DNA from: a virus
Length of the DNA: 64,000 bases
Direction: 5' to 3' (one strand)
IMG/VR virus record: IMGVR_UViG_3300010232_000155
Shown here: piece by piece, positions 25,380 to 60,445 of the stretch
How the letters are laid out: each line of letters starts with the position of its first letter
Numbering within the stretch: position 1 is the first letter of the stretch
Notes under the pieces: generated by a model
Seen by the model: only the letters and a program-made list of their open reading frames with translations
Database searches by the model: none
Told to the model about the DNA's origin: nothing
Program-made: the position numbers and the translations under genes

Positions 25380-25870
25380 ACTTTGCTGTTTAATAGAGAG
25401 TGTTCTGACAGTATAGTATTGATCTGATCTCACAGTCACAATATAAATACGCAGATGTTCTGACAGTGTAAATAAAATTTTTTGAGCAAAATCTCCTCGC
25501 GCGCGCGCACACGCGCGTTTTAACTTAACTTATCTTATCTTGATCAGATCAGATCAAGATGGAGCCCTCGTGGCGCGTGTGGGCGGGTACGAGCGATCGC
25601 GCGACCTCACCGCTACTGCACCGCACCGCTGTACAGTAATAATATAATAATAGTTCAACAGCAAACAGCGCGCGAGCATGCGAGCGCCCGCACGCGTGGC
25701 TACAAAAATTGAGATCGAACTGAAATAATTTATTTTTATTATAGAGAGTTTTTTAAAAAACAGATCGTCTATTTAAATTAAAGTTATTAAAAACAGAGTT
25801 ATTTAGATCGATCTTATAGAGAGTTTTTTTTTTAAAACAGAGTTAAAAAAACAGATTGTTAAAAAGAGTA
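25380..25870. repeat. Non-coding cassette A: (CG)n tracts, GATC repeats, AT-rich GAGTT/AACAGA microrepeats; origin-like
   Basis: cgcgcgcgcgcacacgcgcg at 25498; gatcagatcagatc at 25542; A/T-rich repeats 25730-25865. Confidence 0.75.
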
Positions 25871-26653
25871 TTATTTAGAGAAGTAATGCTCTGTTTCTTC
25901 TTCGATTATAATTTCTACACTGTTAAATGCCTCCTCTCCACACCAGTCTTTGATCTTGTAATAATTATTTGAATCATAGAACTCCTTATAGATGTCAGCA
26001 AAATGTTTGAACCTTCTTTCATCGTTCCTGATCAGCTTCAGTGTTGATTCATCAAGGATCCTGAATCGACGCAGTAGAATAAAATAGAATTGTGTTTGTG
26101 GAGCAATCAGGATACTCTCAATATTATTCCAGTGAGGTTCGATTTGTTCTACTTTTATTTGTTCTGCTTTTCGGTCATACTCGAAAACATCTTTTGGTCC
26201 ATTACTAATACCAGACAGATGCTTATACGTACAACACCTGAAGATTACAGATTGATCTAAACCAGTATCTGTTTCAATCTGATTTACTTTTCTCAAGTAT
26301 TTATCTGACACGGTAAATTGAAATTTATCCTTATAAATCTTATTACTCCATTTTGCATCTGTTCTACACTCTGGTACTGACTCGTTAAATCCTTCAATCC
26401 TATTCAGATGCCGTACTTGTTTTCGCACTATGGTCCCTCCAGTCGTTATTGCACTGATGTCCCTAGCTTGATTTACGATTGCACGTTCGATAAATTCAGA
26501 AATTGAGGAACAGCTCCTGTCTGATCTTACAATATTATCTCGGATTATTGAAATAGGCGCTTCTTCCAGTCTGCAGGATCTTTTTCTCTCTTGCATCGCG
26601 TAATAGTATACGTCGGGGGTACTACTTAAAACTATGTTGATCTGGAGACTCAA
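25871..26653 (-). CDS. Putative double ribbon-helix-helix DNA-binding protein, atypically non-acidic
   Basis: SISEFIERAI and FQFTVSDKYLRKVNQI...DQSVIFR RHH-like segments; K/R rich; likely start MQERK. Confidence 0.5.
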   Translation of the reverse strand: MSLQINIVLSSTPDVYYYAMQERKRSCRLEEAPISIIRDNIVRSDRSCSSISEFIERAIVNQARDISAITTGGTIVRKQVRHLNRIEGFNESVPECRTDAKWSNKIYKDKFQFTVSDKYLRKVNQIETDTGLDQSVIFRCCTYKHLSGISNGPKDVFEYDRKAEQIKVEQIEPHWNNIESILIAPQTQFYFILLRRFRILDESTLKLIRNDERRFKHFADIYKEFYDSNNYYKIKDWCGEEAFNSVEIIIEEETEHYFSK

Positions 26654-26725
26654 GACTCACTAGAGTTTTAGAGTCAACAGCTTTATATATAATTCGGACT
26701 CTTAGACCGGCTCGGGGTTGCATAG

Positions 26726-26751
26726 CCCCACTTCCACCCCCCACCCACCCC
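26726..26751 (-). promoter_or_regulatory. G-quadruplex-forming motif upstream of the promoter of 25871..26653
   Basis: Minus strand GGGGTGGGTGGGGGGTGGAAGTGGGG; TATATAAAG about 40 nt downstream. Confidence 0.5.
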
Positions 26752-26890
26752 ACTCCTCTCAGGAGTATGGGAGACTCGTCATCTCCCTCCTTCCCCGTTC
26801 GCATCACCTGTGTAATGGGGTCAGATCAGCAGGGAGGGTTCCCATCACCCATCCTCGTCTTTTAACATACTCTGGGTATTCTGTAACTGG

Positions 26891-27487
26891 TTATTTACCA
26901 CCGAGGACGTTCTCTGGTCCATATTGTTCACACTTCTCTAAGAACATTTCTCTTTCCTTAATCTCCATCATAGCTCTCCTCTTTTCTTCATCTGTTTCGA
27001 GAATAGCATGTACTTCTAACTCTTCTATTTCCATAATATCATACTCAATGTCAGTAGTAGTGTCTAAATTACTTTCAATATGCTGTGCTAGTCTTTGTTC
27101 AATTTGTGTTGTTCTACCAACATAGAGTTGAACAACAGAACTTGGCTCTTTTACTTTGAGAGAGTATACGTAGAATATTAGGAGCTTCTGTTCTAAACCA
27201 AACTCATTAAGGAGATAATCTGAACGAAGTTCAACTTCTTTATCAAAACTAAATATGCTATTATCAGGTTCTCTGTTATTATTTCTTTTCCGCTTTCTCT
27301 CATAATATCCTTCACCATGCATCTCTATCATCAGTTCTTTCCAACTATCTCCGGTTTCTGATAGCTCCCATGTCTCTGCTTCTTCTGGTGTTTTGTCCAT
27401 GCTGGAGTCCTCACTATTCTCTATGTACACCAACTCCCATAAAACGTGGCCTCGATCAGCCATACTGAAAACCAGAAAATCTGCCAT
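26891..27487 (-). CDS. GIY-YIG nuclease
   Basis: FYVYSL...LYVGRTTQIEQRLAQH...E signature. Confidence 0.8.
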   Translation of the reverse strand: MADFLVFSMADRGHVLWELVYIENSEDSSMDKTPEEAETWELSETGDSWKELMIEMHGEGYYERKRKRNNNREPDNSIFSFDKEVELRSDYLLNEFGLEQKLLIFYVYSLKVKEPSSVVQLYVGRTTQIEQRLAQHIESNLDTTTDIEYDIMEIEELEVHAILETDEEKRRAMMEIKEREMFLEKCEQYGPENVLGGK

Positions 27488-27552
27488 ACTCGTAGTGGCC
27501 TAAATCCAGTTTCACATAACTTAATTAAGTACGGGGGTATTAGTGATACTGT

Positions 27553-28860
27553 ATGCCCGAAGGACCGCCGCTATTATGCTCAGCTTGTGGTCATGAGCTA
27601 TCAGGCAATAAGGAAGAGGAGGTTAGAAGCGAACAAAAAGACCAAGATCCCGATGATCCACACTTTGAAGAAGTTACTGGTGAGAAGGGTGATAGACTAA
27701 AATGCCTCGTAGCTGGCCAATTTGCTGCTCCTGTTAGTCCGAATAACAAAGAAAAGTATATTAAAACAGCACAAGATAATGGTAAAGCACATCTCATTCC
27801 AGAAGGTGCTGGGAAAGGAGGGACAGCTAAAACTGAGCAAAACGAAGATTCTCAAGAGGCTGGTACGCCACAGAGATCACGTAACGAGGTTTTCGAGTTT
27901 GAAGAAGAACAAGAGCAGATAGGAGTATTACAGGACGTTATCGTTAACCCACACTACGAACTCGGACAAGGCCAGATCAAAGAAGTCCTAAGCTGGGCTG
28001 AGGACTACAATGGACAAATGCCACCTGACGTACTCGAAGATATTCTCAAAAACATGTCTGGCATCTCTAAGCAAAAAGCCCAATTAGTCAAACAACGCTA
28101 CGAACTCAAACTGAACAAGTGGATCCAAGAACAACACAATGAAGAAGCTGGTCCACCAATTGGGATCGGAAGGGGACCAATGCCCACTACTCCAGCAAGT
28201 AACGGGTCACAATCAGGACCACCCCCTTCTCCATCACCACCACCGGATACTGACAATACTAGTGATGGGGATGAAAGTGACGAGGAAGATCGTAGTATTA
28301 GGAGTAGAATATCCGGTGGTGGCTCGGATGAGAATCCTAGGAAGAAACGACAGATGAACAGGATCGAGAGACGAACTAAAGCCGCTGATATTGCAGCAGA
28401 GGAAATGGCAAAGCAAGTAGCCCCCGAGGTAGCTCGTGAACTAAGTCGTAATTTCGGTACGTACTTCGGACTACCAGCTAAAGTATTGGAAGCTAAGGCA
28501 GAGAGAGATCCCGACTGGTTCCTCGAAAAGACCGATGAAATCGAGGAAAAACTCGGAATAAGCCTATTCGACTTGTTAGAAGAATCCCAAGCCAAGCAAG
28601 AACGTGATGATCAACAGCACGAAGAAACTACGAGTTCACAACCAGCCCCGGATAGGGAATTGGATAATGCACTCGATGAAATCAATACTGACGAACAGGC
28701 AGTTGAATCAGAACGCAGGCAGACAGAACCCGGTAATCCGATGAAAGCACACCCAGATGAACTAGAAGAGGAAGAAGAGTCAGATGAAGTACTACAACAG
28801 GAAGAAGAATCAGAGGATCCGTTTGATGGGATCTTTGGCGATGAAGCGGAGGCACAATAA
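27553..28860 (+). CDS. Hypothetical protein: N-terminal Cys cluster, helical core, Pro-rich linker, acidic tail
   Basis: CSAC...C at N-terminus; TATA-like TTAATTAAGTA about 25 nt upstream. Confidence 0.8.
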   Translation: MPEGPPLLCSACGHELSGNKEEEVRSEQKDQDPDDPHFEEVTGEKGDRLKCLVAGQFAAPVSPNNKEKYIKTAQDNGKAHLIPEGAGKGGTAKTEQNEDSQEAGTPQRSRNEVFEFEEEQEQIGVLQDVIVNPHYELGQGQIKEVLSWAEDYNGQMPPDVLEDILKNMSGISKQKAQLVKQRYELKLNKWIQEQHNEEAGPPIGIGRGPMPTTPASNGSQSGPPPSPSPPPDTDNTSDGDESDEEDRSIRSRISGGGSDENPRKKRQMNRIERRTKAADIAAEEMAKQVAPEVARELSRNFGTYFGLPAKVLEAKAERDPDWFLEKTDEIEEKLGISLFDLLEESQAKQERDDQQHEETTSSQPAPDRELDNALDEINTDEQAVESERRQTEPGNPMKAHPDELEEEEESDEVLQQEEESEDPFDGIFGDEAEAQ

Positions 28861-29237
28861 TGGGTAGTGGTCTCATTGGAGGTAGTGGTGGAGGTATCGA
28901 CGAACGAATAGCAGACATACTCGTTAACGTTTTCGACAGGTACGACATCGAACCAGGAGAGTTGAATAAGAACATCAACGATACCATCGAACTGGTCAGG
29001 GAGTTTGCCCCCGAGATCAGGGAATTACAAGAATTGACTGACAGTATGGAGAATGACGTACAGGATATGAGGAGGGATCTCAATAGTCTAGATCGTAACA
29101 TGGACGATCTCGGTGATACGCTGGATACGTTCAACGAGAACTCCGATGAACTGGCTGATCAATTAGAACGAGTTGCTGATTCAATGGAACAGTTTAACGA
29201 ACTTATCGATGACGCAGTAGAGGCTGATCAAAAATGA
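28860..29237 (+). CDS. Coiled-coil protein
   Basis: Heptad pattern L..L.D.M...V..M...L..L...M. Confidence 0.8.
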   Translation: MGSGLIGGSGGGIDERIADILVNVFDRYDIEPGELNKNINDTIELVREFAPEIRELQELTDSMENDVQDMRRDLNSLDRNMDDLGDTLDTFNENSDELADQLERVADSMEQFNELIDDAVEADQK

Positions 29238-30535
29238 CCTGGGCTATACTCGTAACTAACAATAAGGGCGGTACTGGTAAGAGTACGATGGCCGTAGAAA
29301 TTGCGAAGGAACTCCGTGATCGTGATTATGATACGGGCTTGATGGATGCAGATATTGACTCTGCTAACCTGGCATCCCGATTAGGTTGTGAAAAGAAAGT
29401 TACGTTCGAGGGAGATCACATCATCCAACCTGTTACGCACATGGGGATGAAACTCTACTCGATGGAGAACGCGTTTGAAGAATCTACATTCTCCCAATCA
29501 GGTGAGTTCTTCAAGGAAGTGATCGATAACATGATCAATCATTCCAATTGGGGCAAGCTGGATTATATAGTCGTTGATTGTCCACCTGGCTCTTCAGACG
29601 TGTTTGACGAGCTTGTTCGTGCTTTGCGTCCAAGTATCAAGGGAGCCGTGTCTATCGGTCAACCAAATGCTGCCGATGATACTGTACGACTCATGAAAGT
29701 CTGTAATCACAATTGGGTTCCGATTATCGGATTCATCGAGAACATGTCCGGTCTCGTTTGTCACGGGAGTCCAGTCACTTGTACTGGCAATGGTGCCGGT
29801 GCCGTACAAGACTTGTTCAGCGATGATAGTAATAGTGAGAATGGCAGCGGTGAGTCGCACGAGGTAGAACCATTTGGATCTGGTGACATTCAACAACTGG
29901 TTGAGAGCGTTGGTGGCAATTTCACTGGACGGATCCCCTTGGTGGTCGATAGGAGTGAAATCAGAGAACACGATGATGATACTATTGACAATACTGTTGA
30001 TGCTATTGTTGAAGCTGATAGTCCTCAGTTACCGGATGATAATACGGGTGATGCGAGCTTTATAAAGAACGTGTGGAAGATAATTCAGGATGGCATTGAG
30101 AAGATGAACGAGACGTATAACATCGAGGAGATTCAAGATCAATTCGGTGTCGAGAATAGGGATCCTCTTGTGATGAAACTTGAGTTGACTGATGCTGGTC
30201 CTATTAGTTCTCGTGTTCTGAGTGCAGTTGTTCTTACTGTCGATAATGGTAATATCAAGCCAGTTAAGGAGTCCAAGGCTAAACGTTTGGGGTATACGGT
30301 CGAGGGTGGTATTAGAATCAGTAGTCAGGATCTGTATGATTCTATTCGTGGTGAGAAGGAAGTAATGCGAGCTGTTGATGGTACTATTATGACTGAAGAT
30401 TATTCTATCACCAAGGCAGTACAAATGGGTGATGCTGAAGTTTGGGGTGATAAGACGGTCAATCGTCTCGCAGTTCTGGATAAGATCCTATCGCGTGTCG
30501 TGGATATGGATGAAGTGCGCGAGCTTACGACGTGA
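29234..30535 (+). CDS. Mrp/NBP35/MinD-family P-loop ATPase fused to a C-terminal SCP2-like domain
   Basis: Deviant Walker A KGGTGKST, DADID, DCPPGSSD, ENMSGLVC; C-terminal IRISSQDLYDSIRG...AVQMGDAEVWGD resembles SCP2. Confidence 0.8.
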   Translation: MTWAILVTNNKGGTGKSTMAVEIAKELRDRDYDTGLMDADIDSANLASRLGCEKKVTFEGDHIIQPVTHMGMKLYSMENAFEESTFSQSGEFFKEVIDNMINHSNWGKLDYIVVDCPPGSSDVFDELVRALRPSIKGAVSIGQPNAADDTVRLMKVCNHNWVPIIGFIENMSGLVCHGSPVTCTGNGAGAVQDLFSDDSNSENGSGESHEVEPFGSGDIQQLVESVGGNFTGRIPLVVDRSEIREHDDDTIDNTVDAIVEADSPQLPDDNTGDASFIKNVWKIIQDGIEKMNETYNIEEIQDQFGVENRDPLVMKLELTDAGPISSRVLSAVVLTVDNGNIKPVKESKAKRLGYTVEGGIRISSQDLYDSIRGEKEVMRAVDGTIMTEDYSITKAVQMGDAEVWGDKTVNRLAVLDKILSRVVDMDEVRELTT

Positions 30536-30749: not shown

Positions 30750-30751
30750 TG

Positions 30752-30985: not shown

Positions 30986-31046
30986 ATAAGTTTATATACT
31001 ATGGGTGCTTATTAATCTTTATGAGCGCTTGCAGGAGTGATACGAG

Positions 31047-39455: not shown

Positions 39456-39779
39456 CTATCTCCAATCCTCTAGCAGTTCAGGCCAGTTGATGCTCGGGAA
39501 AAATTCTTGCCAGTGGGCTTGTTCAAACCAACCACACGTAAATTGGACGACAGCACAATCGTCATTGCTACACTGGTATACTCTCTTGCGTTCCTTATAA
39601 GATACTGTCATACACTGTGGGCAGCACTTCCTTGCAGCGGTAATATCAATCCCATTATCAGGATCATGAGCGTATACTTCGTCTAGATCAATTGTTTCAT
39701 CATCGTTTACTGGATTATCGTCTTTGTCCTCATCATCCGATGCTCCCTCGTAATCGTCTATGAGGTCTTCGAGTGTCAT
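39456..39779 (-). CDS. Zn-ribbon protein with acidic N-terminus
   Basis: CPQC...CSNDDC; starts MTLEDLIDD. Confidence 0.7.
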   Translation of the reverse strand: MTLEDLIDDYEGASDDEDKDDNPVNDDETIDLDEVYAHDPDNGIDITAARKCCPQCMTVSYKERKRVYQCSNDDCAVVQFTCGWFEQAHWQEFFPSINWPELLEDWR

Positions 39780-40093
39780 ACTTTGAAGTGTTCGTCCTCT
39801 GCTTGTTTACCCAGTGCTTTCTCATAAAAGGCCATTCTGTAATAGGTCAGCAAGTCATCCACGTTCTTCAAACTGGGGCTAGTGTCTCCTTTCTCCCAAC
39901 TTCTGAGCGTACGTGCTTTCACTCCAAGATCATTGGCAACTTGGGTTTGTGGAAGGTCGAGATATAATCTCATAATCCTGAGCTGGTTTGGTGTTGGCAG
40001 TTTGTACTGCCACGGGTTGACTTGCTCGATACCATTACTCATCTTTTTTGAGTGCAATCGCTCGTTCTTCGTTTTTGAAATTGTATACTCCAC
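39776..40093 (-). CDS. XRE-family helix-turn-helix regulator
   Basis: LRIMRLYLDLPQTQVANDLGVKARTLRSWEKGDTSP. Confidence 0.9.
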   Translation of the reverse strand: MEYTISKTKNERLHSKKMSNGIEQVNPWQYKLPTPNQLRIMRLYLDLPQTQVANDLGVKARTLRSWEKGDTSPSLKNVDDLLTYYRMAFYEKALGKQAEDEHFKV

Positions 40094-41818: not shown

Positions 41819-41953
41819 TGGGCACAGGGGGATTTGAACCCCCGATCAATTACTTTCTCCCGAGAGTAGGCTGACTGTGACATCTGGTTCTCTCGCGGAA
41901 GTCCTACTCTCGTTAGAAAACAATTGCTCTAGTCCGTGCTGAGCCATGTGCCC
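41819..41953 (-). tRNA. trnR: tRNA-Arg(TCT) with 59-nt canonical 37/38 BHB intron
   Basis: Acceptor GGGCACA/TGTGCCC, D-stem GCTC/GAGC, T-arm GGGGG-TTCAAAT-CCCCC; intron helix CGAGAGTAGG/CCTACTCTCG; two G-U pairs in the anticodon stem; no encoded CCA. Confidence 0.88.
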
Positions 41954-42084
41954 GAGTAGTGGGTTAAGCCCACTAGTCTGCCAGTGACCAACTGACCATT
42001 TGCACGTTGAGCATCGTGAACCCATGAGTGGCAACACACAGCGAGATGCTCTCCCACGTTTTATAACGCGCTGTGCAGGCGCAG

Positions 42085-42203
42085 TAGTCCCGAGCGGATT
42101 TGAACCGCTGTCGTGAGCTTTCTTCTCAGGCTGATGGCACGCTAGTATGGCAGGGATTATCTGATCCAAAGGCTCATGTGATTGGCCGCTACACCACGGG
42201 ACT
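42085..42203 (-). tRNA. trnQ: tRNA-Gln(TTG) with 46-nt canonical 37/38 BHB intron
   Basis: AGTCCCG/CGGGACT acceptor, TGAGC/GCTCA anticodon stem, CTTT:GAAG central BHB helix, T-arm AGCGG-TTCAAAT-CCGCT. Confidence 0.92.
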
Positions 42204-43718: not shown

Positions 43719-46700
43719 TTACCAGTCAGCAAGTGATGGTTGATCTGGTTCATCATCGTCATCATCCTCCTCCCCTATTGTCTTATTATTATTTATCTCA
43801 GACAAGTCAACTGTTTCTATCTCCTTGTTATCGTCATTATCTGTAATATCTTCCTCGTCGTTTTCCACGTCCAAGTCGAACTCGTCAAATACTGAATCTC
43901 TATTATCCTGATCTGTAAACGTGTCGATCACTTCGGGTTCTTCCTCGTCCTCTTCTGGTGGTACGTCTCGCTCCCAGTCAATAGTATCGACAGCATCCTC
44001 GTTTTCAGTACCATTACTAATAAAGTCATCATCATCTGCGATAGTCTCCTCCGTGTTAGAATCAAAACTGCCTATCGAGGCTTGATCTTGTCCAGTTCTG
44101 ATTTCCTCCCATAACCATTCAGTACACTCGATAATTCTCGATAATGGGCCATCGATCTGTATATCTAAGTACTTATCAAAGTCAATCGTGACCGTATCTG
44201 GCACATTGTTCTGATTCATCCAGACTATGAATTTTGAATCCTTTAGAGTTGGTGCTGGTGGATACTCTCCACCAACACGCTCAACATAGATGCCCTTCGG
44301 CTTATCTCCGGGTTGTATCTGCTCACCAAGATGCTCGTTAGCATACTCTGCACCTCGAACATGCTTGGTCTTACTATCGTACTGGTCAAACGCACGACCG
44401 ATGCCACCAGCGATGCCTAACTCGTCATATTCAAATGCTAAGTTCTTGATCTTCTCAATCCTGTCACGGACTAGATCGGATACTTCTTGTTTTTCAGCAC
44501 CCATCAGTATTGCTTCTATCAAGTCCATTTGTAGGTTCCTGGCAACGTCACTGTAGTCAGATCGTTGGAACTCGAAACCAACGATGTCAATATCATCGAC
44601 GTGTTTTCCCTCTTTCCAAATGATATGACCAGCATAGCGTTTCTTCTTACCAGCTTGGATGAATATCCTGTAAAGTTTCTCGAACTCCATTTCAAACCAA
44701 TGCTCATCTGTATTAAGACGTTCTCTAGCAAACTCATCATAGGCCTCGTTAATTACTTTCTCCATCTCAAAAGAAAGTTCGATAACTTCAGTAGCAGTAT
44801 TAGTATCAGTAAATTCAACCATAACGCTGTCAGTGTCTCCGTATATGACCTCATAGCCCATATCACTGACTTTCTCTTGGGTAAACTTGATCACTTCTCG
44901 ACCAGTTGCTGTCACGGCAGCTGCATTATCTTGATCGTATAATCGGAAACGATCCCAACCGAGTAACCCGTACAAAGTATTACCAGTCCATTGGAATTTA
45001 CCATTACGACCTGCGAGTACAGTATAATTACCTCTCACAGTTATACAGTATACTTGACCGTCATGATCTTTAGTTTCTACTTCTTCTTTTCTGAATGAGC
45101 CACTATTTCTGTTAAGATATATCGTCCAAAAATCATCATCTTGCGATACAGAGGGTTTAAATCCGCACTTGACAGATAATTTTACAAGATCCTCTTTCAT
45201 CTGATCGCTTGTAGTACTGTATGCATAGGAATCATTCCCGTGTTGACGACCGTTAGCTCTGATCAATACATCAAGCAGGTGCATCAAGATTGTACCATCT
45301 ATCTGGTTATCAAATATATACTCTGGTATCTTTCTATTTTTTGATCCTAAATAGCTGGGCATCTCCGTATCTTTTGGTTCTGCAATAGTTTGGTCTACAA
45401 AAATATCGTAAACTAGTCTATTACTTATAATAATATCATCGTCACTCGTACCATACTGAATACCAAGTCTATCAAGCAGAGTTTTAATTTTACTCGTCTC
45501 ATAATCATCTGTCCGAGTCATATTTATTCTCTTATATTCACCTCCAGTTGATTTTTCCCCATGATAAAATGATCCTCTTGCGATAATCCAACCAGTTAAC
45601 TTGAGCCAGTCATAAAGATCATACCTTAGATAGATACTGCCTTTATTTTTATCAGGCTGTATCTGAATAATATCTGCCTTTTCATACAGTTCTTCTCCGT
45701 ACTTCCAATATAGATCAAGATCAGTAAGTAAGTACTGATTGCGTCGGTCATAATAGGATAGAGCATTTTCAAGTTCCGATGGTAAATTAGCTTTAAATGT
45801 GCTGCCATGCGCTGTCGGTGTTATCCAGAGCATTGCCTCATCCACGAAGTTAACAATATCCACCACTGTTTCAGCACGTCCGTCAAACTTATTATGGAGT
45901 GGTATATTATAATCGTATCCCCTGCTGAGATCATCATAATGTTCCATGAAGGAACCAGTATGTGAGTCACTATTTACAAACATTCTATGACTAGGAGTAA
46001 TCATAAGATCAGTATGTTGAGTCTGAATATGCTCTAATTCCCTATGCAGATTTTCTTGCCTAGTCGTATCAATCACATCCCTGATCTCAACATCATGAGT
46101 ATCTGGATTAATAGTATAAACCTCATCTCCAACTTCAATGTCTTTAATATTCCGTATTCCATCTGGCGTAACTACATCAGTATCTCCACTAAAACAGTTC
46201 ATAATTACCTTCACCGCACGCTGCTGCATATCGAACTTATGATACTGTCTTGATCCAGCTGATTGGGAATTACGCTTTTCCTTTAACAAATCCCGCTCAT
46301 CAAGTAGATCATCAATCATCTGCTTAACGATTGAATCCTTCTCCGTCGTATATGAAACACCATTCGGAGCTGTAATCTCACCATCAGGATCCTTAGTACG
46401 CGGTCCCGCGTTGAGCGTCTCCATCGACATCGGATAGAGAGACTTCAGATCCAGAACTGAAATCATTTCCTTAACTTCAGTAGCCGGATCAAACACTTCA
46501 GCTCCTTCAAACTCCTCATCACCACCTTCCACTGTCCTAGACGATGGGAGTACGAACCTCCCATTACACGTTCTCAACACGTAAATATCAGCAGCCTTGG
46601 AATAATCAACAACCTCACCGAGCCTACCACCGACAAAATTACAGACCTCCTCATAAAAAGCGACAATATCACGCTCCTCCTCTAGTGCAACTGTAAGATA

Positions 46701-47735
46701 CACGTCCCTGATGTTATACTCTAAAAGTGTACTAAGATCATCGTGATACATCGTATTGATGGATTGTCCTTCTTTCTCCAGCTTGCCAATATCTAATTCT
46801 TCCTGGGCTACGTCATCGAGACTAAACGAGTCAAGCTCGCTAAACTCTAGATTCTTATACCCATCGAGCATGTCGAACACTGCAATACCCTTGATCTTCC
46901 CAATAGTCCTCCCGTAAAACGTATCATCATACGCAGTTCCTAATGGCGAAAGCGTATCTGACTCAATGCCATCTAACGTTTCACACCTGTTAATCAGATA
47001 GACCGCGTCGAACTCTTTAAAATTCCATCCAGTAAGTACATCAGGCCAATGCTCATCAAGATACTCTGCAAATGCTTCAAGCATTTTAACCTCGTCATCA
47101 AAGATCTCAAGATTAACATCATCAACATACTGCGTCTCAATAGCAGGTTCACGTCCTTTCTTCTCGAACAAGTAGACATGATACTCTCCCGTAAACGAAT
47201 CATAGAAAGAGATGCATACTATTGGTTTAATCGCTTCTTGCTCGTCGGGGAAACCACCCTCATCATCGACTTCAATATCGCAAAAGAGCATTCTCGTCTC
47301 AGTAGAGTACTCGATCTTGTCTATATCCTCCAGTGGGACTTCCTGTCCTGCTACATCATCAATCTCGACACCACGATAAATGCCAGTATCCAGGGAGAAC
47401 CTATTTGGGAACAGGATGTCAGCCTCGTAATGCTCGAAACGATCCCTGACTTGAGGCACGTCACCGGGCATGTACGTGTAAACCCTGCTCAATTCCCTCC
47501 CCCTGATCGAAGTATATCCATCTTCGACTCGATCAACCAGGTGGTGATTCAATAAGTCAGTATCAACTTGCTCGCTCGGTACGCAGAAGTAAGGGTCGAC
47601 TTCACGATTCTCAAGATGGATCCTATTATCATCTTCATCTCGTCCGATCAGGTTCATCACTGGTCGATCTCGACCATTACGCTGTTCACGAGTATAGTCT
47701 AACTTCTTAAGTTCTACTCTCATAATCTTCAACAC
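43719..47735 (-). CDS. polB: Family B DNA polymerase with intein and acidic C-terminal tail
   Basis: Exo I DIE, motif A DLKSLYP, motif B KVIMN/TLYG, motif C YGDTDS; tail ends QPSLADW (PIP-like). Confidence 0.97.
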   Translation of the reverse strand: MLKIMRVELKKLDYTREQRNGRDRPVMNLIGRDEDDNRIHLENREVDPYFCVPSEQVDTDLLNHHLVDRVEDGYTSIRGRELSRVYTYMPGDVPQVRDRFEHYEADILFPNRFSLDTGIYRGVEIDDVAGQEVPLEDIDKIEYSTETRMLFCDIEVDDEGGFPDEQEAIKPIVCISFYDSFTGEYHVYLFEKKGREPAIETQYVDDVNLEIFDDEVKMLEAFAEYLDEHWPDVLTGWNFKEFDAVYLINRCETLDGIESDTLSPLGTAYDDTFYGRTIGKIKGIAVFDMLDGYKNLEFSELDSFSLDDVAQEELDIGKLEKEGQSINTMYHDDLSTLLEYNIRDVYLTVALEEERDIVAFYEEVCNFVGGRLGEVVDYSKAADIYVLRTCNGRFVLPSSRTVEGGDEEFEGAEVFDPATEVKEMISVLDLKSLYPMSMETLNAGPRTKDPDGEITAPNGVSYTTEKDSIVKQMIDDLLDERDLLKEKRNSQSAGSRQYHKFDMQQRAVKVIMNCFSGDTDVVTPDGIRNIKDIEVGDEVYTINPDTHDVEIRDVIDTTRQENLHRELEHIQTQHTDLMITPSHRMFVNSDSHTGSFMEHYDDLSRGYDYNIPLHNKFDGRAETVVDIVNFVDEAMLWITPTAHGSTFKANLPSELENALSYYDRRNQYLLTDLDLYWKYGEELYEKADIIQIQPDKNKGSIYLRYDLYDWLKLTGWIIARGSFYHGEKSTGGEYKRINMTRTDDYETSKIKTLLDRLGIQYGTSDDDIIISNRLVYDIFVDQTIAEPKDTEMPSYLGSKNRKIPEYIFDNQIDGTILMHLLDVLIRANGRQHGNDSYAYSTTSDQMKEDLVKLSVKCGFKPSVSQDDDFWTIYLNRNSGSFRKEEVETKDHDGQVYCITVRGNYTVLAGRNGKFQWTGNTLYGLLGWDRFRLYDQDNAAAVTATGREVIKFTQEKVSDMGYEVIYGDTDSVMVEFTDTNTATEVIELSFEMEKVINEAYDEFARERLNTDEHWFEMEFEKLYRIFIQAGKKKRYAGHIIWKEGKHVDDIDIVGFEFQRSDYSDVARNLQMDLIEAILMGAEKQEVSDLVRDRIEKIKNLAFEYDELGIAGGIGRAFDQYDSKTKHVRGAEYANEHLGEQIQPGDKPKGIYVERVGGEYPPAPTLKDSKFIVWMNQNNVPDTVTIDFDKYLDIQIDGPLSRIIECTEWLWEEIRTGQDQASIGSFDSNTEETIADDDDFISNGTENEDAVDTIDWERDVPPEEDEEEPEVIDTFTDQDNRDSVFDEFDLDVENDEEDITDNDDNKEIETVDLSEINNNKTIGEEDDDDDEPDQPSLADW
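44979..46196 (-). mobile_element. Intein (406 aa) in polymerase motif B with degenerate LAGLIDADG-type endonuclease
   Basis: KVIMN|CFSGDT...GRNGKFQWTGN|TLYG. Confidence 0.92.
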
Positions 47736-51334: not shown

Positions 51335-51336
51335 TG

Positions 51337-54288: not shown

Positions 54289-54293
54289 CTATT

Positions 54294-55454
54294 TCACTCT
54301 CCTAAATCCGCGAAGTACTGCTGTTTTGTTTCCTCCTCGGTCTTATCACCACTACGGACGACCCATTTAAGATCATCATGTGATACTCCGGCACGTTGAG
54401 CATCTACATCTTGTAAGATTCCATGTATCTCGAATTTAGTAAGTCCTGTTTTAGTCATGATCTCCTCGTAGGTCAATGGATTATCAAAGATCAAGTTTTT
54501 AACTCGTTCTTTAGTACTCATAGCAGCTACACGTCTACTCCTCTTATGCTCTTTAATAAACTCGATCATGATGTCAGGATTGACTTCCAGACCCCACCAG
54601 TTTCTCGCGGCCATGTACGATTGAACATCCCTGGACTCTCTGGGTGACAGACTGAACTTTCTGTATATTTGACTCGGTGGTTTGAAGTTAGTAGCAACTT
54701 CTTTCTCTGATTTTACGATTGTTCTCACATCCTGTATTGTCGTATTATCCAGTGTTTTCGTGATCGGTGGTGACTTGTCCATTAGTTCAGTAACCTCACC
54801 AGTAAGCGGTTCTGCTGGTGCCACAATATTGAACCGTGATTTTAGAGCATTTTCAGCTAGTAGTGTCGGATCGTGTGTAGCTCCCCAGAACACAAAGTCT
54901 ACCTCCAGGTCGAACTCATTATTCTCCTTAAACGTGATACCATCAAAGCGTTTCTGAGCGTTTCTTTTTGCTCCCTCAGACAAGCCTGCGATCTTATTCA
55001 GTGAAACGTTAGTCTTTCCCTCTTCCAGCAAGGCCAAGTACGTGTTAAGCAGCTCGTCGTTAAACTCTGTTTGACCGAACTCTGTTGACGCAACTATTGG
55101 TGCTTTCAGTGGAGCTGGTGGTGAGAACTTACCACCACTAACAGATCCACGTAGTACGGCAGCAGTGAGCTTACCACAGGTACTAACTAGATCGTCTCCT
55201 AGAACCATCTGCATCTTTCGTAGTAGTGTCGATTTCACCCATCCTGGCTCCCACGTTAGCATGACGTGGTTTCTGTATCTGAATGGTGGATTAGAGTACT
55301 TGTCTATATTCCAAGAGGCTGCAGACATTAAGAGTTCACGAGCTGATCTAGCACCGAGAAATGAATACTTATCAGCAAATGCATCACGAATATCTTGATA
55401 GACTTGTTTCCTCTCTTGTCGCTCATCTTTGGAGAGATTTGTTTTGGCTTGCAT
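54294..55454 (-). CDS. MCM-like AAA+ protein with degenerate Walker motifs and C-terminal HTH
   Basis: TWEPGWVKST, LTAAVLRGS, IVASTEF, LALLEEG, SRF. Confidence 0.7.
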   Translation of the reverse strand: MQAKTNLSKDERQERKQVYQDIRDAFADKYSFLGARSARELLMSAASWNIDKYSNPPFRYRNHVMLTWEPGWVKSTLLRKMQMVLGDDLVSTCGKLTAAVLRGSVSGGKFSPPAPLKAPIVASTEFGQTEFNDELLNTYLALLEEGKTNVSLNKIAGLSEGAKRNAQKRFDGITFKENNEFDLEVDFVFWGATHDPTLLAENALKSRFNIVAPAEPLTGEVTELMDKSPPITKTLDNTTIQDVRTIVKSEKEVATNFKPPSQIYRKFSLSPRESRDVQSYMAARNWWGLEVNPDIMIEFIKEHKRSRRVAAMSTKERVKNLIFDNPLTYEEIMTKTGLTKFEIHGILQDVDAQRAGVSHDDLKWVVRSGDKTEEETKQQYFADLGE

Positions 55455-55476
55455 AGTTTCTACTCAGACGTTCACT

Positions 55477-56487
55477 CTAAGTGTTATCCCCGAACAACTT
55501 AACCGTGTCGTCTGTATCATTCTCATCGGGATCATCAAATAGTGTTACTTCTTCAGTTTCGTCGTCTTGGCCATCCTCAGTTGAAGATTGCATATCTGAT
55601 AATGATGATTGCCCACTCGAATAGAACTTGGCGATACTATTGGGATCGAAGTTAGTAATTATACTCTCAACAGTATCCTTACCCTCGCCACTGACACCAG
55701 AATCGATGAAGTTAGTTGACTCTTCGACGGTAATATGATACTCACTAAGTCTTTGAGGAACTTCATCATAAGAGACGATCCAATACCCGTCGATCTCCTC
55801 CAGTGTATCAATGAACCTATTGTGATCAAACCCGTCTTTACTGGCTAGATAATACGTCTCCGTACCAATATACGGTGGGTCAAAGTAGAACAGTGTTTCC
55901 TCGCCATCGTACAGTTCGACTATTTTTTCAAAATCAAGACACTCAATAGTAACGTGATCCCAACAACCTTTGAAATTGTCTAATCGTTCTTTGGCATTAT
56001 GGAATGTTTCAGCTCCGTTTTGAACTTTACTTCGTCCAAACCCTGCTCTGCCACTGTACTTCGCACCGAATTGCATATAGCGTAGTGCAAAGAAGATCCC
56101 AGCACGCCTGACTTGATTGTGTGAAATATCATCACCAGTAGCTAGATTATCAGTAATAGGCTCTCCTGGTAGTCTACTCTCATCACGTTCAACATCAGGT
56201 TCACCGTAGAACTCATCAATGAAATCCTTGTACTGCTCTTTTGAGTATGGGATTCCATTGAGCCATTCGACGAGCCTCTCTGGAGCCTCGCGGTACACGA
56301 TGAAGAAGTGTACTAGCTCGTTGTCTAGGTCATTGTAAACATCAACATCTGATGGTCGTTTGTTGAGTGTAACAACACCTGAACCACCAAATGCTTCGAC
56401 AAAGCACTCGTGTTCTGGCATTAGGGTTTTGATTCTCTTGAACTGGCCGCCCTTTCCCCCTGGCCACTGGAGTAGTGTGTCTACCAT
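55477..56487 (-). CDS. dam: Dam-like (D12 class) adenine methyltransferase
   Basis: WPGGKGG, EAFGGSG, YNDLD, FYFDPPY. Confidence 0.9.
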   Translation of the reverse strand: MVDTLLQWPGGKGGQFKRIKTLMPEHECFVEAFGGSGVVTLNKRPSDVDVYNDLDNELVHFFIVYREAPERLVEWLNGIPYSKEQYKDFIDEFYGEPDVERDESRLPGEPITDNLATGDDISHNQVRRAGIFFALRYMQFGAKYSGRAGFGRSKVQNGAETFHNAKERLDNFKGCWDHVTIECLDFEKIVELYDGEETLFYFDPPYIGTETYYLASKDGFDHNRFIDTLEEIDGYWIVSYDEVPQRLSEYHITVEESTNFIDSGVSGEGKDTVESIITNFDPNSIAKFYSSGQSSLSDMQSSTEDGQDDETEEVTLFDDPDENDTDDTVKLFGDNT

Positions 56488-56493
56488 CTTTTG

Positions 56494-56889
56494 TTACGTA
56501 TAATTGATTAATGCTTCCAATCCAGAACTGGCCTCCGGTTCCTCTTTTAATTCAAACTCACTAGTATCAGTCGGTTCTTCCTCATTTATCCACTCTTCCC
56601 ACTCCTCGTTATCGTATTGTTCAAAATCGTGAGCTTCGGATTCTTGAATCCCACGGATCACAGTACGAGTAAGACAGTGGGATTCATCTGCTATCTTGCC
56701 TATTGTCTGCACAGTATCCTCCATGTCTGACTTGTACTTGTTCCAGATCCGCTCCCAGTAGTCATCTGGTTCATAGCCTCTCGTAAATGGGTTTCCGGGT
56801 ACGTCTCTCTTGCCCTCGGTACTTTTCTTCTTTGGTCGACCGCCCCTTGCGTCTGGTTTACCGACGCCTTCGAGATCTTTAAGTGCCAT
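56494..56889 (-). CDS. Hypothetical protein
   Basis: GGRPKKK basic patch plus acidic tail. Confidence 0.7.
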   Translation of the reverse strand: MALKDLEGVGKPDARGGRPKKKSTEGKRDVPGNPFTRGYEPDDYWERIWNKYKSDMEDTVQTIGKIADESHCLTRTVIRGIQESEAHDFEQYDNEEWEEWINEEEPTDTSEFELKEEPEASSGLEALINYT

Positions 56890-56891
56890 CC

Positions 56892-57089
56892 TTATTGTGT
56901 TGATTGATGAGTATACTTACAGTTCTCACAGAGATTCTCAATGGTTTCTACATCTTTGAAAAAAGATGTTGATCCCTGAAGTCGCTCTCTGCATAGTGTC
57001 AAGTAGTATCTTGTTGAGTTAATTACTGCTGAGTGATTTGTGATTATGTGCCTTTTCTCGTATTGATCTGCTTGAATTACCCTTACCAT
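56892..57089 (-). CDS. Small Cys/His-containing protein
   Basis: H...LC...LCENC. Confidence 0.5.
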   Translation of the reverse strand: MVRVIQADQYEKRHIITNHSAVINSTRYYLTLCRERLQGSTSFFKDVETIENLCENCKYTHQSTQ

Positions 57090-57173
57090 ACTCTGGCTAT
57101 TCTTGTGAGTACACTATTAATTAGGACTTCGGGGGTAATAAAAGTGCCGGATCGTATATTACTGAAGAAATAT

Positions 57174-57332
57174 TCAGGCCCAATCCGAAACGTCGTCGAT
57201 GACAGACTCATCATCTGCCATAACCCACTGCTCTTCATCCATGAAGAAAACAGTCTGATTGTCGCCCCAGTTCTCAGATTTAACTTCGGGATCGTCCGAG
57301 TCGGGTCGTTTTGGGGGCGGAACGGTAGACAT
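57174..57332 (-). CDS. 52-aa acidic protein (replaces track ORF 57083..57388)
   Basis: MSTVPPPKRPDSDDPEVKSENWGDNQTVFFMDEEQWVMADDESVIDDVSDWA; GGAGG Shine-Dalgarno upstream. Confidence 0.65.
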   Translation of the reverse strand: MSTVPPPKRPDSDDPEVKSENWGDNQTVFFMDEEQWVMADDESVIDDVSDWA

Positions 57333-57417
57333 TTAGCGTTACCTCCTGTCTGTCCTGTAATAGCGCGAGTCATATAAGACTTGTGCATGGTAAGACGTGT
57401 GTAACAGGGTTTTGATG

Positions 57418-59283
57418 TTAATACTTACCCGGCTGGGCTGTCCGACCACGGATCTCAAGTTCATCGACAGTGTTACTGTCTAAGAGACTTTCAATAGAAA
57501 TAGTATAGTCAGCATCCGTAACATCCTCTGCTAGGATAAGCTTCTGGGCGGCTCTAGTCATACCGACATAGTGAACACGTCGCTCCTCATCGGCTATCGG
57601 ATTGCCATGTTGCCCACTGCCTCTCATATCTAACTCGTCATCCATATTCTCAATAATAGTTCGAGTACTATCAGTAGCCAGTAGGACATTCTCAGCTTCT
57701 TTACCCTTTGCACTATGGATAGTACCGATCCTGATCCGTTCAGGACTCATATCACTATTATCCATCATTATATTACCCTTGAGAGCTTCTTTCTCGTAAT
57801 AGTTAATTTCACCCTCGTCTTTGAGAGTCTGCAGGTAATTTCTCACGTTCATGGGAACACTACGACCATCTTGCTTTACTCGCAGGTTCTTCCTGACCTT
57901 ATCAGCATCAATACTAGAAAAGTTCCCCATAGCAAGATCGTGTGGGTCAAAGTCGTTTTGACCTTTGATCATATCATCAGTCGCATAATCCATGATCGTT
58001 TCAATATGACGCCCTTTGATCGTGTCTCCACCGTTTCTAAAATTAGCCAGAGCATCTCGGAGTTTGACGAGGTTTTGTGTCCAATTGTCAAACGTACTCA
58101 TATTGCGGAATGGGATCCCCATATCATGTAGATCATTTGAGAACTCATTGATCTGATACCGTGCCCTGAACAAGATGAGCCACTCGCCTTCCTCTAAGTG
58201 TTTCATCAATTCTCTCGATGTAGGATTCCTATACGCCAAAAACTCTCCTCCTTCACCATTTGGTTCGATCATCTTCTCCTGCCGTGTATTGACTTGCTGG
58301 ATGACACCATTACAAACTTCCCAGATAGTACGAGGGATGCGATACGTGGTTTCCAGTACTTCAAGCTCTCCTTCTTCTCCAAGCATGAAGTCAGGATCAG
58401 CTCCTGACCAACTGTAAATGCATTGGTCATCGTCGCCGCCGAGGAATACTTTATCACAGACCAACTTTTGAAGCAAGTACCATCGGTACTGAAGTGCTGT
58501 TAGGTCTTGAACCTCATCAACGTAGAGTACTTGAGTATCGACAAAAGGACCAGTCCCACGGAGTGCTTCCTTATCCAGCATGGGATCACTACGCGCTTGC
58601 TCGAATAATTCTGGAGTAGTAAGATCATCATCTGGGAACAATGGACCATACCCTTGTTCTAATAGCATTTTCTCACCCCAGTCTACAACTTTCTCAATCA
58701 TATCTCCGAAACCAACAAGTTCTTGATTTTTCTTATACGCTTCCCACTCGTTCATCAGCATTTCTGGATTCTCCTCCCATTCCCATTCCAAGGGACATTG
58801 TTTCCACTCACTGATCGGGAGACAGTTGGATTGGAGCCAACTGTACATTCTGAATAAGGCGTCACCCTCATCTAGATCACCAGCCATGATGTCATCGTCA
58901 TCATCATCATGTCCGAACTCCAGTCCAAATTTCATACAGAAGTTATTCTTGTCTCTGTAAAGTATGATGTTTCCTTGTTCAAGACCGAGTAGTTGGTAAC
59001 AACGACTGTGGATCGTCGTAACACGTTCTTCGATCTCGTACTTGTAGTAATCAGTCATCCGATAGAGTCTGTCAGCTGCTTCGTCTACACCCGAGTTTGT
59101 ATACGTTACCAACATTTGATCTTCGAGTGGATACTCGTCACTATGTTCGAGAAATAGACCGTCTAGTTCAAGTTCTGGATTACCAACAACCCTGGTAGTT
59201 TTACCAGTTCCAGGCCCACCGATGACTCGATGAACTTCAATATTATTATTCTCGTTATCTGATTCGCTCACAGTGTTGTTCAT
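57418..59283 (-). CDS. uvrD: UvrD/Rep-family SF1 helicase
   Basis: GGPGTGKTT, VDEVQD, GDDDQCIY, YRIP, TIHSAKGKEA, EERRVHYVGMTRA. Confidence 0.93.
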   Translation of the reverse strand: MNNTVSESDNENNNIEVHRVIGGPGTGKTTRVVGNPELELDGLFLEHSDEYPLEDQMLVTYTNSGVDEAADRLYRMTDYYKYEIEERVTTIHSRCYQLLGLEQGNIILYRDKNNFCMKFGLEFGHDDDDDDIMAGDLDEGDALFRMYSWLQSNCLPISEWKQCPLEWEWEENPEMLMNEWEAYKKNQELVGFGDMIEKVVDWGEKMLLEQGYGPLFPDDDLTTPELFEQARSDPMLDKEALRGTGPFVDTQVLYVDEVQDLTALQYRWYLLQKLVCDKVFLGGDDDQCIYSWSGADPDFMLGEEGELEVLETTYRIPRTIWEVCNGVIQQVNTRQEKMIEPNGEGGEFLAYRNPTSRELMKHLEEGEWLILFRARYQINEFSNDLHDMGIPFRNMSTFDNWTQNLVKLRDALANFRNGGDTIKGRHIETIMDYATDDMIKGQNDFDPHDLAMGNFSSIDADKVRKNLRVKQDGRSVPMNVRNYLQTLKDEGEINYYEKEALKGNIMMDNSDMSPERIRIGTIHSAKGKEAENVLLATDSTRTIIENMDDELDMRGSGQHGNPIADEERRVHYVGMTRAAQKLILAEDVTDADYTISIESLLDSNTVDELEIRGRTAQPGKY

Positions 59284-59339
59284 TGTCGTTCACCTTCTGT
59301 TACAGTGTTTTCGTTCATTTTTTATTCTTGTCCAGTACG

Positions 59340-60445
59340 TTCAGATCGTCTCACATGGGTTTTATGTTTTCCAAATCTCATCCTCAGACTGTCTCACCTG
59401 GGTTTTCTATTCAGATCGTCTCACAGTGCTGATGTGGTAATTAGCTGATCTGATCTCTTTCAGTTATCGATCTGTATTCTTGTGGTTGTATTTGGACTAT
59501 GGGGTATTTAAATCTTACGATGCAATAATGGAGTAGTAACTCGGGTTATTTTTTGATTAATACTCCTATCATCAAAATCTGGTACTCTCAGATCTTTACG
59601 CGCGCGCGCGCGGTATTTGCTATGTACCACAGTTGATCTCATTTTAATATTTGATGTTGATCTCATTTTTATATTTGGTGTTGATCTGGTTAAATCAATT
59701 CAGAATATACTCATAACAACAAAACTCTTTAAACTCATCATCTGTTAATTTAAATCAGAATAAACTCATTAAATTTTAATCTCATCATCTGTTTACTCAT
59801 CAAGACTAAACTCATTAAATTTAGATCTGAATATACTCATGACATCAAAACTCTTTGAGATAAATCTTATTAAACTCATCAAAATTAATCTTAGAAAATC
59901 AGTTGAGAATATACTTACCAAATTTACATCAGAATATACTCATCAAAATCAATCTTATTATGTTCAAACCAGAGGATACGGTTCGCCCGGACGGGGAGGG
60001 ATCGAGCCACCGCAGGGCGGTTGGACGGGAGGGTTTCAGTTCAGCCTCATCATCTCAGAATTTTTCTCGCGCGCGCGTGCAGATTAGCTGATTTGATCTA
60101 GTTCTCAGAATCTCAGATACTTACGCGCGCGAGCGCGCTCGCGCGCCGCGCGCGCGTATTTGCTCTTGATCTCTTTTTTTATTATTTCTGTTGATCTCTT
60201 TTTATTAGGGGAGGGGTTTTTATTATAAGGGAGGGTTTAAATAGGGGGTGTTTATAAGGGGAGGGTTTAAATAGGTATGCTGTTTTTATATATGCTGTGC
60301 TGTATAAGGGTGGTAAACACGGAACTCCGGTTACCGCTCCGCTACGCCGCCTATTGTATTAAAGGTTACGATATCGGGTCCAGTCTCGATCAAATCAGAT
60401 CAAATCAGCTTATACCGCGCGCGCGCGAGGAGAATCTCAGATTTT
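59340..60445. repeat. Non-coding cassette B: direct repeats, AT-rich iterons, four (CG)n tracts, 22-bp palindrome, G-quadruplex motif; origin-like
   Basis: cagatcgtctcac-type x3 (59342, 59385, 59412); 24-nt tandem at 59632; about 8 ACTCAT iterons; (CG)7 at 59599; palindrome 60125-60146; G runs 60208-60265. Confidence 0.85.

Follow-up and report, generated by a model that had tools for sequence, protein, structure and literature searches.

The window analyzed here is a stretch of 64 kb (44% GC) from IMG/VR record IMGVR_UViG_3300010232_000155, which we read as an uncultivated virus- or plasmid-like element of hypersaline (salt-loving) archaea. Near-identical JGI contigs, all from one sample, add 11.4 kb to its left end and 3.0 kb to its right end, so that the element measures at least 78 kb. 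Two long non-coding regions, block A (25347-25870) and block B (59284-60461), are each located at the head of a long minus-strand operon. Judged from their sequences, they are paralogous, selectively maintained and recently evolved cis-regulatory cassettes. We tentatively favor, at a little below an even chance, that these paralogous regions are platforms bound by the same proteins, B being a likely replication origin combined with the control region of the replication operon, and A a second origin or a copy-control or enhancer site.

Shared motifs and anatomy of the two blocks

A previous inspection of the window (the sequence-only reading) had noticed the two blocks. Their relatedness is confirmed and is stronger than first stated. 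The exact 17-bp inverted repeat then claimed, TCTCCTCG(CG)4C, is present at 25492-25508 (+) and 60417-60433 (-), with a chance expectation of 0.01. It consists of TCTCCTC and a CG run, and its simple CG-repeat portion recurs five times in B. Within the window, (CG)n tracts of at least four units and the tandem versions of the GATC-spaced repeats, both of which had also been pointed out, are confined to A and B, and this exclusivity extends over ~12.6 kb of flanks. The sequence CGCGCGCG has 14 matches in the window, all of them within the blocks, where 0.07 are expected from shuffles, and it was not found in the flanks beyond both window ends (L081, L082). Similarly, every match to GATCWGATC, GATCARATC and TGATCTGATC (8, 7, and 4, respectively) lies in A or B, whilst GATC itself occurs 540 times in the window; its density in the blocks (19 per kb in A and 14 per kb in B, for an element mean of 8.4 per kb) is unexceptional. 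Finally, the AT-rich iterons, described earlier as GAGTT in A and AACTC in B, form one-stranded GAGTW arrays of opposite polarity, with five copies on the plus strand and none on the minus strand in A (25716-25870), and ten on the minus strand and none on the plus strand in B (59690-59965). Both counts exceed those in all of 2000 shuffles.

The best local alignment of A with reverse-complemented B scores 55, as compared with 30 in direct orientation and 25 ± 2.8 (maximum 34) for shuffles. Matches of at least nine bases common to A and B number 26 in direct and 24 in inverted orientation, a roughly ten-fold excess in both orientations over control windows (~2.3). Since many shared motifs are palindromic and B contains modules in both orientations, the description of the cassettes as mutually inverted depends on the asymmetric features, i.e., the 17-mer, the alignment of modules A2 and B3, the polarity of the iterons, and the order of the parts. 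Thus, the description holds for the distal cassettes; B is a larger mosaic. The promoter-proximal boxes, TGATCTGATCTC and CTGTGAGA followed by GATC, are in direct orientation relative to both downstream operons.

Alignment of the six (CG)n contexts revealed one type of module in six copies. It is composed of an optional TCTCAGA-like box, a (CG)4-7 tract, (G)TATWWGCT, and one to three TTGATC-type repeats, which next to B1 and B3 are tandem iterons of 24-25 nt. On the plus strand, A1, B1, B2, and B3 point forward, and A2 and B4 backward. The order of parts in A is A1, a GC-rich core, reversed A2, and the AT array. Reverse-complemented B reads B4, core, reversed B3 and B2, a second GC-rich core, the AT array, reversed B1, the promoter-proximal boxes, and the helicase gene. 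As A1 corresponds to B4 (17-mer and type of GATC repeat) and A2 to B3 (alignment score of 55), A on the plus strand is colinear with reverse-complemented B.

Block A occupies the whole non-coding region between the gene for an RHH-like protein and the S8 protease operon; it has no open reading frame (ORF), a GC content of 38%, and 10 GATC sites. Its part next to the S8 promoter (25347-25476, -) contains two ACTGTCAGAAC-type boxes (25401-25415 and 25456-25470) around an AT box, and the 12-mer TGATCTGATCTC (25420-25431), which recurs in B in direct orientation at 59446-59457. Repeat families D3 and I4 are found here, and additional copies of CTGTGAGATCA are present at this place in L127, a contig of a close relative; a promoter/operator role would fit this part. 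Module A1 (25478-25562, +) contains TCTCCTC, a (CG)5-type tract, and three GATCA repeats in a near-palindrome. The GC-rich core between the convergent modules (25563-25627) is 97% identical in L127, and the dyad as a whole is 91-97% identical to the sister lineage, with flanking genes at ~93%. Module A2 (25628-25712, -; module alignment A6) has a GC-alternating tract, TGTTTGCT, GTTGAAC, and an AT-rich tail, and is followed by the polar iteron array (25716-25870, +; 155 bp, 20% GC). RNA folding of the A dyad on either strand is no more stable than that of shuffles (z ~ -0.6), and a structured RNA is therefore not claimed there. Rfam scans of the window and both blocks gave nothing in the blocks, the sole matches being two intron-containing tRNAs (41819-42203).

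Block B fills the non-coding region between a small-gene operon and the helicase operon. Three GTGAGACRRTCTGA boxes (59340-59425, -; family D8), located ~60-150 nt upstream of the helicase start, occur nowhere else in the window, are 94-95% identical in the relative L085, and may act as an operator. Module B1 (59578-59690, +) consists of (CG)7, GTATTTGCT, and 2.3 copies of a 24-nt iteron with GTTGATCT. Next come the polar AT-rich array (59690-59965, -; 276 bp, 24% GC) and a GC-rich core (59966-60045) with two GGACGGG(G)AGGG repeats on the plus strand. Module B2 (60046-60106, +) contains TCTCAGA, (CG)5, TTAGCT, and GATTTGATCT, and module B3 (60100-60215, +) contains two TCTCAGA boxes, a 33-nt CG-alternating tract with a perfect 22-bp palindrome (60125-60146), TATTTGCT, and 2.1 copies of a 25-nt TTGATCTC iteron. 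Thereafter, the variable center of the B3/B4 dyad (60208-60385, +) comprises G-string repeats (60208-60275) and a GC-rich segment, and module B4 (60380-60452, -) comprises the 17-mer with (CG)6, GTATAAGCT, and two copies of GATTTGATCT. The AT array of B is thus bracketed by direct, not inverted, modules, i.e., B1 and B2/B3.

Origin, control region, or neither

What we infer for these blocks, i.e., protein binding, origin activity, and roles for methylation and Z-DNA, may be envisaged as follows. The blocks would have arisen recently in one narrow lineage of a family of archaeal elements encoding a family B DNA polymerase (PolB), PrimPol, a UvrD-type helicase, and an S8 protease. An identical set of DNA-binding proteins would occupy A and B, each block offering two convergent modules around a GC-rich core, a GAGTW array beside it, and promoter-proximal boxes next to the downstream operon. 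Block B, which is larger and has two direct (CG)n-iteron modules around the 276-bp array, would most likely unite an internal origin with the replication operon's control region, because its iterons lie next to an AT array of variable copy number, its GATC repeats are accompanied by the element's own Dam-type methylase, and the site is directly upstream of the replication operon. Block A would be a shorter inverted copy, set in the divergent control region that the family conserves upstream of the S8 operon. It may function as a second origin, or as a site communicating with B, whether as an enhancer or through titration or handcuffing of an initiator that binds iterons. Methylation-coupled control could come from the tandem GATC repeats and the methylase, and the (CG)n tracts, being prone to adopt the Z-DNA conformation in a cytoplasm with molar salt, could serve as torsional or boundary elements. 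In a bolder version, which we consider rather improbable, the (CG)n tracts would be near-constitutively in the left-handed Z form in the multi-molar-salt cytoplasm, as working parts of a two-site system of replication control. The Z-DNA-forming boundaries, jointly with GATC iterons open to Dam methylation, would then specify two inverted polar origins, or one origin plus the partner with which it is handcuffed. We know of no described counterpart, in archaea or archaeal viruses, of a natural origin gated by Z-DNA and methylation.

Iteron origins have an adjacent AT-rich region, and the P1 oriR and the oriC of E. coli use GATC-bearing repeats and Dam methylation. The features of A and B that resemble origins are the iterons, AT-rich arrays, dyads, and GATC repeats combined with an encoded Dam methylase. 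Tandem direct repeats in the ~17-25-bp range are found next to AT-rich DNA, i.e., 2.3 copies of the 24-nt and 2.1 copies of the 25-nt iteron near arrays of 20-24% GC. In P1 (oriR/incC plus incA) and R6K (gamma plus alpha/beta), there are likewise tandem repeats of 24-25 nt by an AT-rich region and a second related cluster elsewhere, which in P1 incA and R6K serves control. Furthermore, the GATC-bearing repeats of P1 oriR are Dam-dependent, and the element studied here also combines GATC repeats with its own Dam-type methylase. However, it has no adjacent gene for a Rep initiator, its clusters are 34 kb apart, its host is archaeal, and it carries PolB and PrimPol genes; moreover, nothing in P1 or R6K corresponds to the (CG)n tracts and GC-rich dyad cores.

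Similar partial resemblances exist elsewhere. The homologous regions (hrs) of baculoviruses, which have been proposed to be both origins and transcriptional enhancers, are also dispersed, paralogous, AT-rich non-coding repeats with imperfect palindromes between gene blocks. They differ in that only two copies are present here, in an unrelated element from another host domain, with other motifs and no known IE-1-like binder. Herpes simplex virus, with its two inverted oriS copies and oriL, offers another example of several dyad-type origins, inverted, between transcription units, and close to replication genes. However, the viral copies are within long identical inverted repeats and have an AT-rich palindrome center, whereas A and B share only motifs and architecture and have a GC-rich center. 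Archaeal origins consist of an AT-rich element with repeats, which carry G-strings in halophiles (PMC3528665). The blocks resemble origins of the orc/cdc6 (origin recognition box, ORB) type in their AT-rich stretch with flanking repeats and their arrangement as inverted-repeat cassettes, and G-runs are present in B (60208-60275) and in the corresponding region of relatives at the A position. In contrast to ORB-type origins, there is no adjacent or recognizable orc1/cdc6 gene, and the inverted modules surround a GC-rich core with the AT array to one side. No ORB-like 20-40-bp consensus was seen in the blocks, for which no test with the ORB consensus was made. Thus, the kind of arrangement, dispersed homologous repeats for origin or control (enhancer) function, is familiar, and the pair is a lineage-specific variant of it. 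What is new is the combination of Z-DNA-prone (CG)n tracts with GATC iterons in an element of a halophile, organized as inverted polar cassettes.

Several observations weigh against origin function. No Rep-family domain was found in the genes neighboring A and B, which encode the S8 protease, the RHH-like protein, the UvrD-type helicase, and a 101-aa ORF, and no Orc1/Cdc6 was detected among 21 Pfam-scanned ORFs of at least 300 aa. The sole AAA+ candidate (1476-2507) is 23 kb away from A and matches clamp-loader and MCM families weakly. The dyad modules surround GC-rich cores and not an AT-rich stretch, unlike in classical archaeal origins; in this respect, and in having no orc/cdc6 gene, the blocks depart from a classical haloarchaeal origin (PMC3528665). 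The GC skew, which the sequence-only reading had proposed as a check, has no inflection at A or B; it follows the coding strand, turning at the strand switches near 27.5 kb and 39.3 kb. The (CG)n tracts and GATC repeats are absent from the corresponding regions of relatives at the A position (L129-L135). Block B is absent from relatives with a helicase of 52-60% identity (L083, L084, L086, L136), in which a gene abuts the helicase start, and its distal part (60162-60361) is poorly conserved even in the sister lineage. Since the cassette is missing from relatives that share the replication genes, it is not the family's general origin design. Conservation, one of the points by which the earlier proposal was to be judged, does not support it: only the position of A is retained, in the one large intergenic region that all relatives keep, B is not found at a helicase identity of 60% or less, and the (CG)n/GATC motifs are seen solely in kin at least ~91% identical at the DNA level. 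Taken together, the proposed pairing of origins draws support from the paralogy, exclusive motifs, inverted colinearity, origin-like anatomy, and location of B beside the replication operon, whereas conservation and GC skew speak against it. Also the suggestion that the blocks are roughly opposite to each other on a circle of ~70 kb holds only loosely, since 34 kb separate them on an element that measures 78 kb or more.

The anatomy suits a purely transcriptional control region about as well. In that case, A and B would be operator or enhancer arrays for one set of regulators, coordinating the replication operon with the S8 operon, which is probably structural, and would have no origin activity. 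We regard such a role as possible, and as nearly as likely as origin function. It is favored by the position of both blocks at the head of long same-strand operons, by the promoter-proximal boxes common to both and direct relative to transcription, by the GTGAGACRRTCTGA boxes close to the helicase start, and by the divergent promoter region found at the A position in relatives. Candidate regulators are encoded as well, i.e., the Xre-type HTH protein (39776-40093), the RHH-like protein (25871-26653), and small zinc-ribbon proteins, among them that of 62344-62841. However, it leaves unexplained the polar AT-rich arrays of 155-276 bp with variable copy number, and why the distal cassettes are inverted relative to two co-oriented operons when the proximal boxes are direct. 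Besides, 1 kb is long for an archaeal promoter region.

The remaining explanations are less probable. Partition sites, i.e., centromere-like arrays bound by an adaptor and used for segregation by the ParA/Mrp-type ATPase operon (27553-30535), appear improbable. In relatives, the region at the A position is directly upstream of this three-gene operon and has TAAGGC-type iterons on that side, and the ATPase matches a Pfam family named ParA (1.6e-40) as well as CbiA and MipZ. However, this Pfam family is of the Mrp/NUBPL iron-sulfur carrier type and not a proven partition ATPase, A is separated from the operon in the window by two inserted genes (1.7 kb), with a relic of the ancestral iterons at 27488-27552, and B is unconnected to the operon. 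A centromere for the ATPase operon is thus possible for the ancestral region but fits the present cassettes poorly. Slightly less credible still is a largely non-functional expansion, in which slippage-prone CG/GATC microsatellites and AT-rich minisatellites were spread by duplication or gene conversion between two permissive intergenic regions. The restriction of the motifs to one narrow lineage, the variable copy number, and the replacement of the B3/B4 dyad center in the sister lineage are in line with it, but conservation of the cassette cores equals or exceeds that of neighboring genes, and the two blocks and the sister lineage alike retain the composite module, the order of parts, and the strict iteron polarity, which is not expected of random expansion.

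Genome ends or packaging signals, i.e., pac/cos sites or former inverted terminal repeats of a linear genome, are very unlikely. Block A heads the probable structural operon, a frequent location of packaging sites, a JGI contig ends in its array at ~25807, and the cassettes are inverted like terminal repeats. Yet, the JGI assembly is broken at several other places, so that contig ends are little informative, whilst the window and L127 are continuous through A, and the window, L082, and L085 through B. In addition, no terminase, portal, or protelomerase was detected in any ORF of at least 300 aa, and the PolB falls in primer-extending Pfam families and is accompanied by PrimPol. The hairpin ends and packaging signals entertained by the sequence-only reading are therefore not borne out.

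Least likely is its suggestion of inversion, in which the tyrosine recombinase (345-1349) would turn over the 35 kb lying between the 17-mers, as an amplification system or switch resembling FRT/Flp of the yeast 2-micron plasmid, where the origin is beside one repeat, or the Int1 invertible region of halovirus phiCh1. All combine inverted repeats with a tyrosine recombinase on one element, the 17-bp repeat is exact, beyond chance and accompanied by a Phage_integrase-family gene, and an origin-like array lies by one of its copies; but the 17-mer has no core site with inverted arms around a 6-8-bp spacer, is mostly simple CG repeat and is followed past the CG tract by different sequences in the two copies, none of the assembled contigs that cross A (window, L127, L139) or B (window, L082, L085) departs from the others in flanks or orientation or shows an inverted isomer, distant relatives keep a syntenic gene order, and the integrase gene is at the far end of the window, 24 kb from A, as for chromosomal integration, while inversion would exchange no promoters.

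The element supplies two compact, motif-defined sites as candidates for where the large PolB/PrimPol-encoding virus- and plasmid-like elements of hypersaline archaea start replication and coordinate it with gene expression. The predictions are that the same proteins bind A and B, that B replicates autonomously, and that GATC methylation matters. As the (CG)n tracts are limited to the two control regions, they offer a natural test of the use of Z-DNA-prone sequence at molar salt. The practical impact is modest pending a demonstration of function.

Distribution and turnover in related elements

For both the helicase and the S8 protease, over 100 homologues with 45-65% identity exist, often together on metagenomic contigs of 50-100 kb, and these shared sets define the element family. 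An intergenic region of 400-1000 nt upstream of the S8 gene is present in every relative examined (L128-L135). Where sufficient upstream DNA is available (L129-L135), this region is divergent and faces a conserved three-gene operon encoding a protein of ~430 aa, a coiled-coil protein of ~117 aa, and a P-loop ATPase. The respective coordinates are L129:9476-10000, L130:3283-4006, L131:2938-3955, L132:2981-3399, L133:3502-3949, L134:1157-1554, and L135:3580-3985. Five or six TAAGGC/TAGGC iterons and G-runs are located by the ATPase operon, followed by GC-rich hairpins and an AT-rich repeat zone before the S8 gene. Some of the hairpins show compensatory changes, between two or three sequences, and a 22-nt box is identical in L130 and L131. 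This family-wide region is a candidate origin, centromere, or structured RNA. In distant relatives, the TAAGGC iteron cluster is found upstream of S8 only, and a search for a second cassette revealed no significant motif shared between the S8-upstream region and other fetched DNA, the comparison covering 43 kb (L086 and L129) of the 65-kb contig of one relative, and L130 against L083, a contig similar in length that is from another assembly and for which sameness of the element is not established.

Block A proper is found in L127 (93% identical DNA) alone, and block B in L082, of the same population, and L085 (91% identical) only. Compared with L085, the promoter-proximal half of B (59362-60061) is 94-98% identical, except for 59762-59861, where iteron copy number differs by indels; the GC-rich core reaches 98%, and the helicase gene varies between 78 and 96%. 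At the variable center of the B3/B4 dyad, identity drops to 39-61%, and different CG-tract modules take its place in L085. Both AT arrays differ in copy number between the window and the sister lineage, that of A being unlike the array in L127. L082 has additional copies at the array of B as well as a scaffold gap filled with N, and JGI contig Ga0304726_1000162 ends within the array of A; the iteron arrays thus disrupt assembly.

In the lineage of the window, the RHH-like gene, and in the window itself also a gene for a GIY-YIG endonuclease, was inserted into the ancestral S8-upstream region, relics of which remain at 26654-26890 and 27488-27552. The first of these, between the two inserted genes, is non-coding and GC-rich with long C-runs (G-runs on the other strand), and is 97% (26670-26769) and 88% (26770-26869) identical in L127. 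It probably represents part of the ancestral control region that was displaced. The GIY-YIG (T5orf172-like) endonuclease gene (26891-27487, -) is present in the window and in L139, and L127 has an unrelated ORF of 66 aa instead. It is probably a recently inserted homing-type endonuclease gene that splits the ancestral divergent control region. The cassette's restriction to one lineage, with different repeats in its place in relatives, suggests that cis-elements turn over rapidly while the gene backbone is conserved, and this may be useful for matching repeats to their binding proteins by comparison.

Searches beyond the family and other genes of the element

Neither Rfam nor the phage, plasmid, IMG/VR, and species-genome collections yielded a sequence or described system that matches. 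By BLAST, block B had no counterpart in the phage and plasmid collections, and window segment 23000-28000 and the S8 protein were likewise without a match. A scan of IMG/VR for the 17-mer gave 40 matches, none of which resembles the window; 16 of them are on contigs with less than 50% GC, all in coding sequence, and the others on contigs with at least 55% GC, and they are regarded as chance or unrelated. In the low-GC contigs (L088-L124), which are unrelated to the window, the coding 17-mer corresponds to a conserved peptide, SPRARARF, near the start of a gene. The composite module pattern had two matches in 185,579 species genomes, in metagenome-assembled genomes of a pseudomonadote and a micrarchaeote (Pseudomonadota, Micrarchaeota), with similarity limited to the short motif. 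As these are chance matches, no host copy of the module was found. A search of the species genomes with the S8 protein alignment gave no relative and, thus, no host or provirus, and a first metagenome scan with a single S8 protein gave nothing. With the helicase, IMG/VR yielded only distant marine-phage relatives (29% identity or less); a homologue on a Halorarum plasmid is 43% identical.

Pfam scans covered 21 of the 22 window ORFs of at least 300 aa; the remaining one (15819-17168) was assessed by tblastn, in which halovirus baseplate proteins were matched, a baseplate-like domain being common to it and tailed viruses of Haloarcula. The genes at the left end of the window encode the tyrosine integrase (345-1349; Phage_integrase family) and the AAA+ protein (1476-2507; weak RFC (clamp-loader) and MCM matches), and UbiA prenyltransferases and concanavalin/LamG-type proteins are among the other products. 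The S8 subtilase (23853-25346, -; Peptidase_S8, 9e-27), which heads the long operon downstream of A and has 116 homologues, many of them sharing contigs with helicase homologues, is a core gene of the element family. In contrast, the gene for the 260-aa RHH-like protein abutting A (25871-26653, -) is lineage-specific: it is present in L127, but not at the corresponding place in L129-L135. Its RHH_1 match (E = 0.005) is below the Pfam cut-off, and the Atlas leads weakly to TraY/NikA/CopG-like folds. The Mrp/ParA-type ATPase is encoded at 29234-30535. A 105-aa Xre-type HTH_3 protein (39776-40093, -; E = 5.8e-8), encoded where the plus-strand gene block reaches its convergent end, might be a repressor that acts on the promoter-proximal boxes common to both blocks. 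Among 20 small ORFs, no Z-alpha or other telling domain was found; the matches were this HTH_3 protein, zinc ribbons, and a weak MazG.

The replication operon below B encodes, besides PrimPol and a PD-(D/E)XK nuclease, a UvrD/PcrA-type superfamily 1 helicase as its first product (57418-59283, -; UvrD-helicase 1.7e-17, UvrD_C 6.4e-16), a Dam-type (D12 class) N6-adenine methyltransferase (55477-56487, -; MethyltransfD12 7.4e-19), and a PolB with an intein (43719-47735; DNA_pol_B, DNA_pol_B_exo1, and Hint/Intein_splicing matches). From its family, the methyltransferase is predicted to be specific for GATC. In the Dam-encoding lineage, GATC is about twice as frequent as expected from composition (8.4 per kb in the window and 8.0-10.5 per kb in L127, L082, and L085). 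Three loci of relatives are devoid of GATC, i.e., the 43 kb of L086 and L129, and the 9.5 kb of L133, and L086 has an N6_N4-type methylase in place of Dam. Self-methylation in the one case and avoidance of the site in the other look like opposed responses to a GATC-directed restriction activity of the host.

The two tRNA genes of the window, of 135 and 119 nt (41819-41953 and 42085-42203, -), were seen by Rfam (48 bits each) and missed by ARAGORN, which fits the presence of archaeal introns. The window's intein is in PolB, and in several relatives the UvrD-type helicase carries an intein instead (P0032, P0035, P0040, P0047, and P0053; forms of ~980 aa). Inteins thus appear to move among the replication genes of the family. 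Finally, the locus coordinates on the Logan contig SRR34348088_349 (65,201 bp), from which L086 and L129 derive, imply the gene order of the window, and the contig ends near the PolB region; as far as coordinates tell, this fits a circular or circularly permuted genome of ~65 kb.

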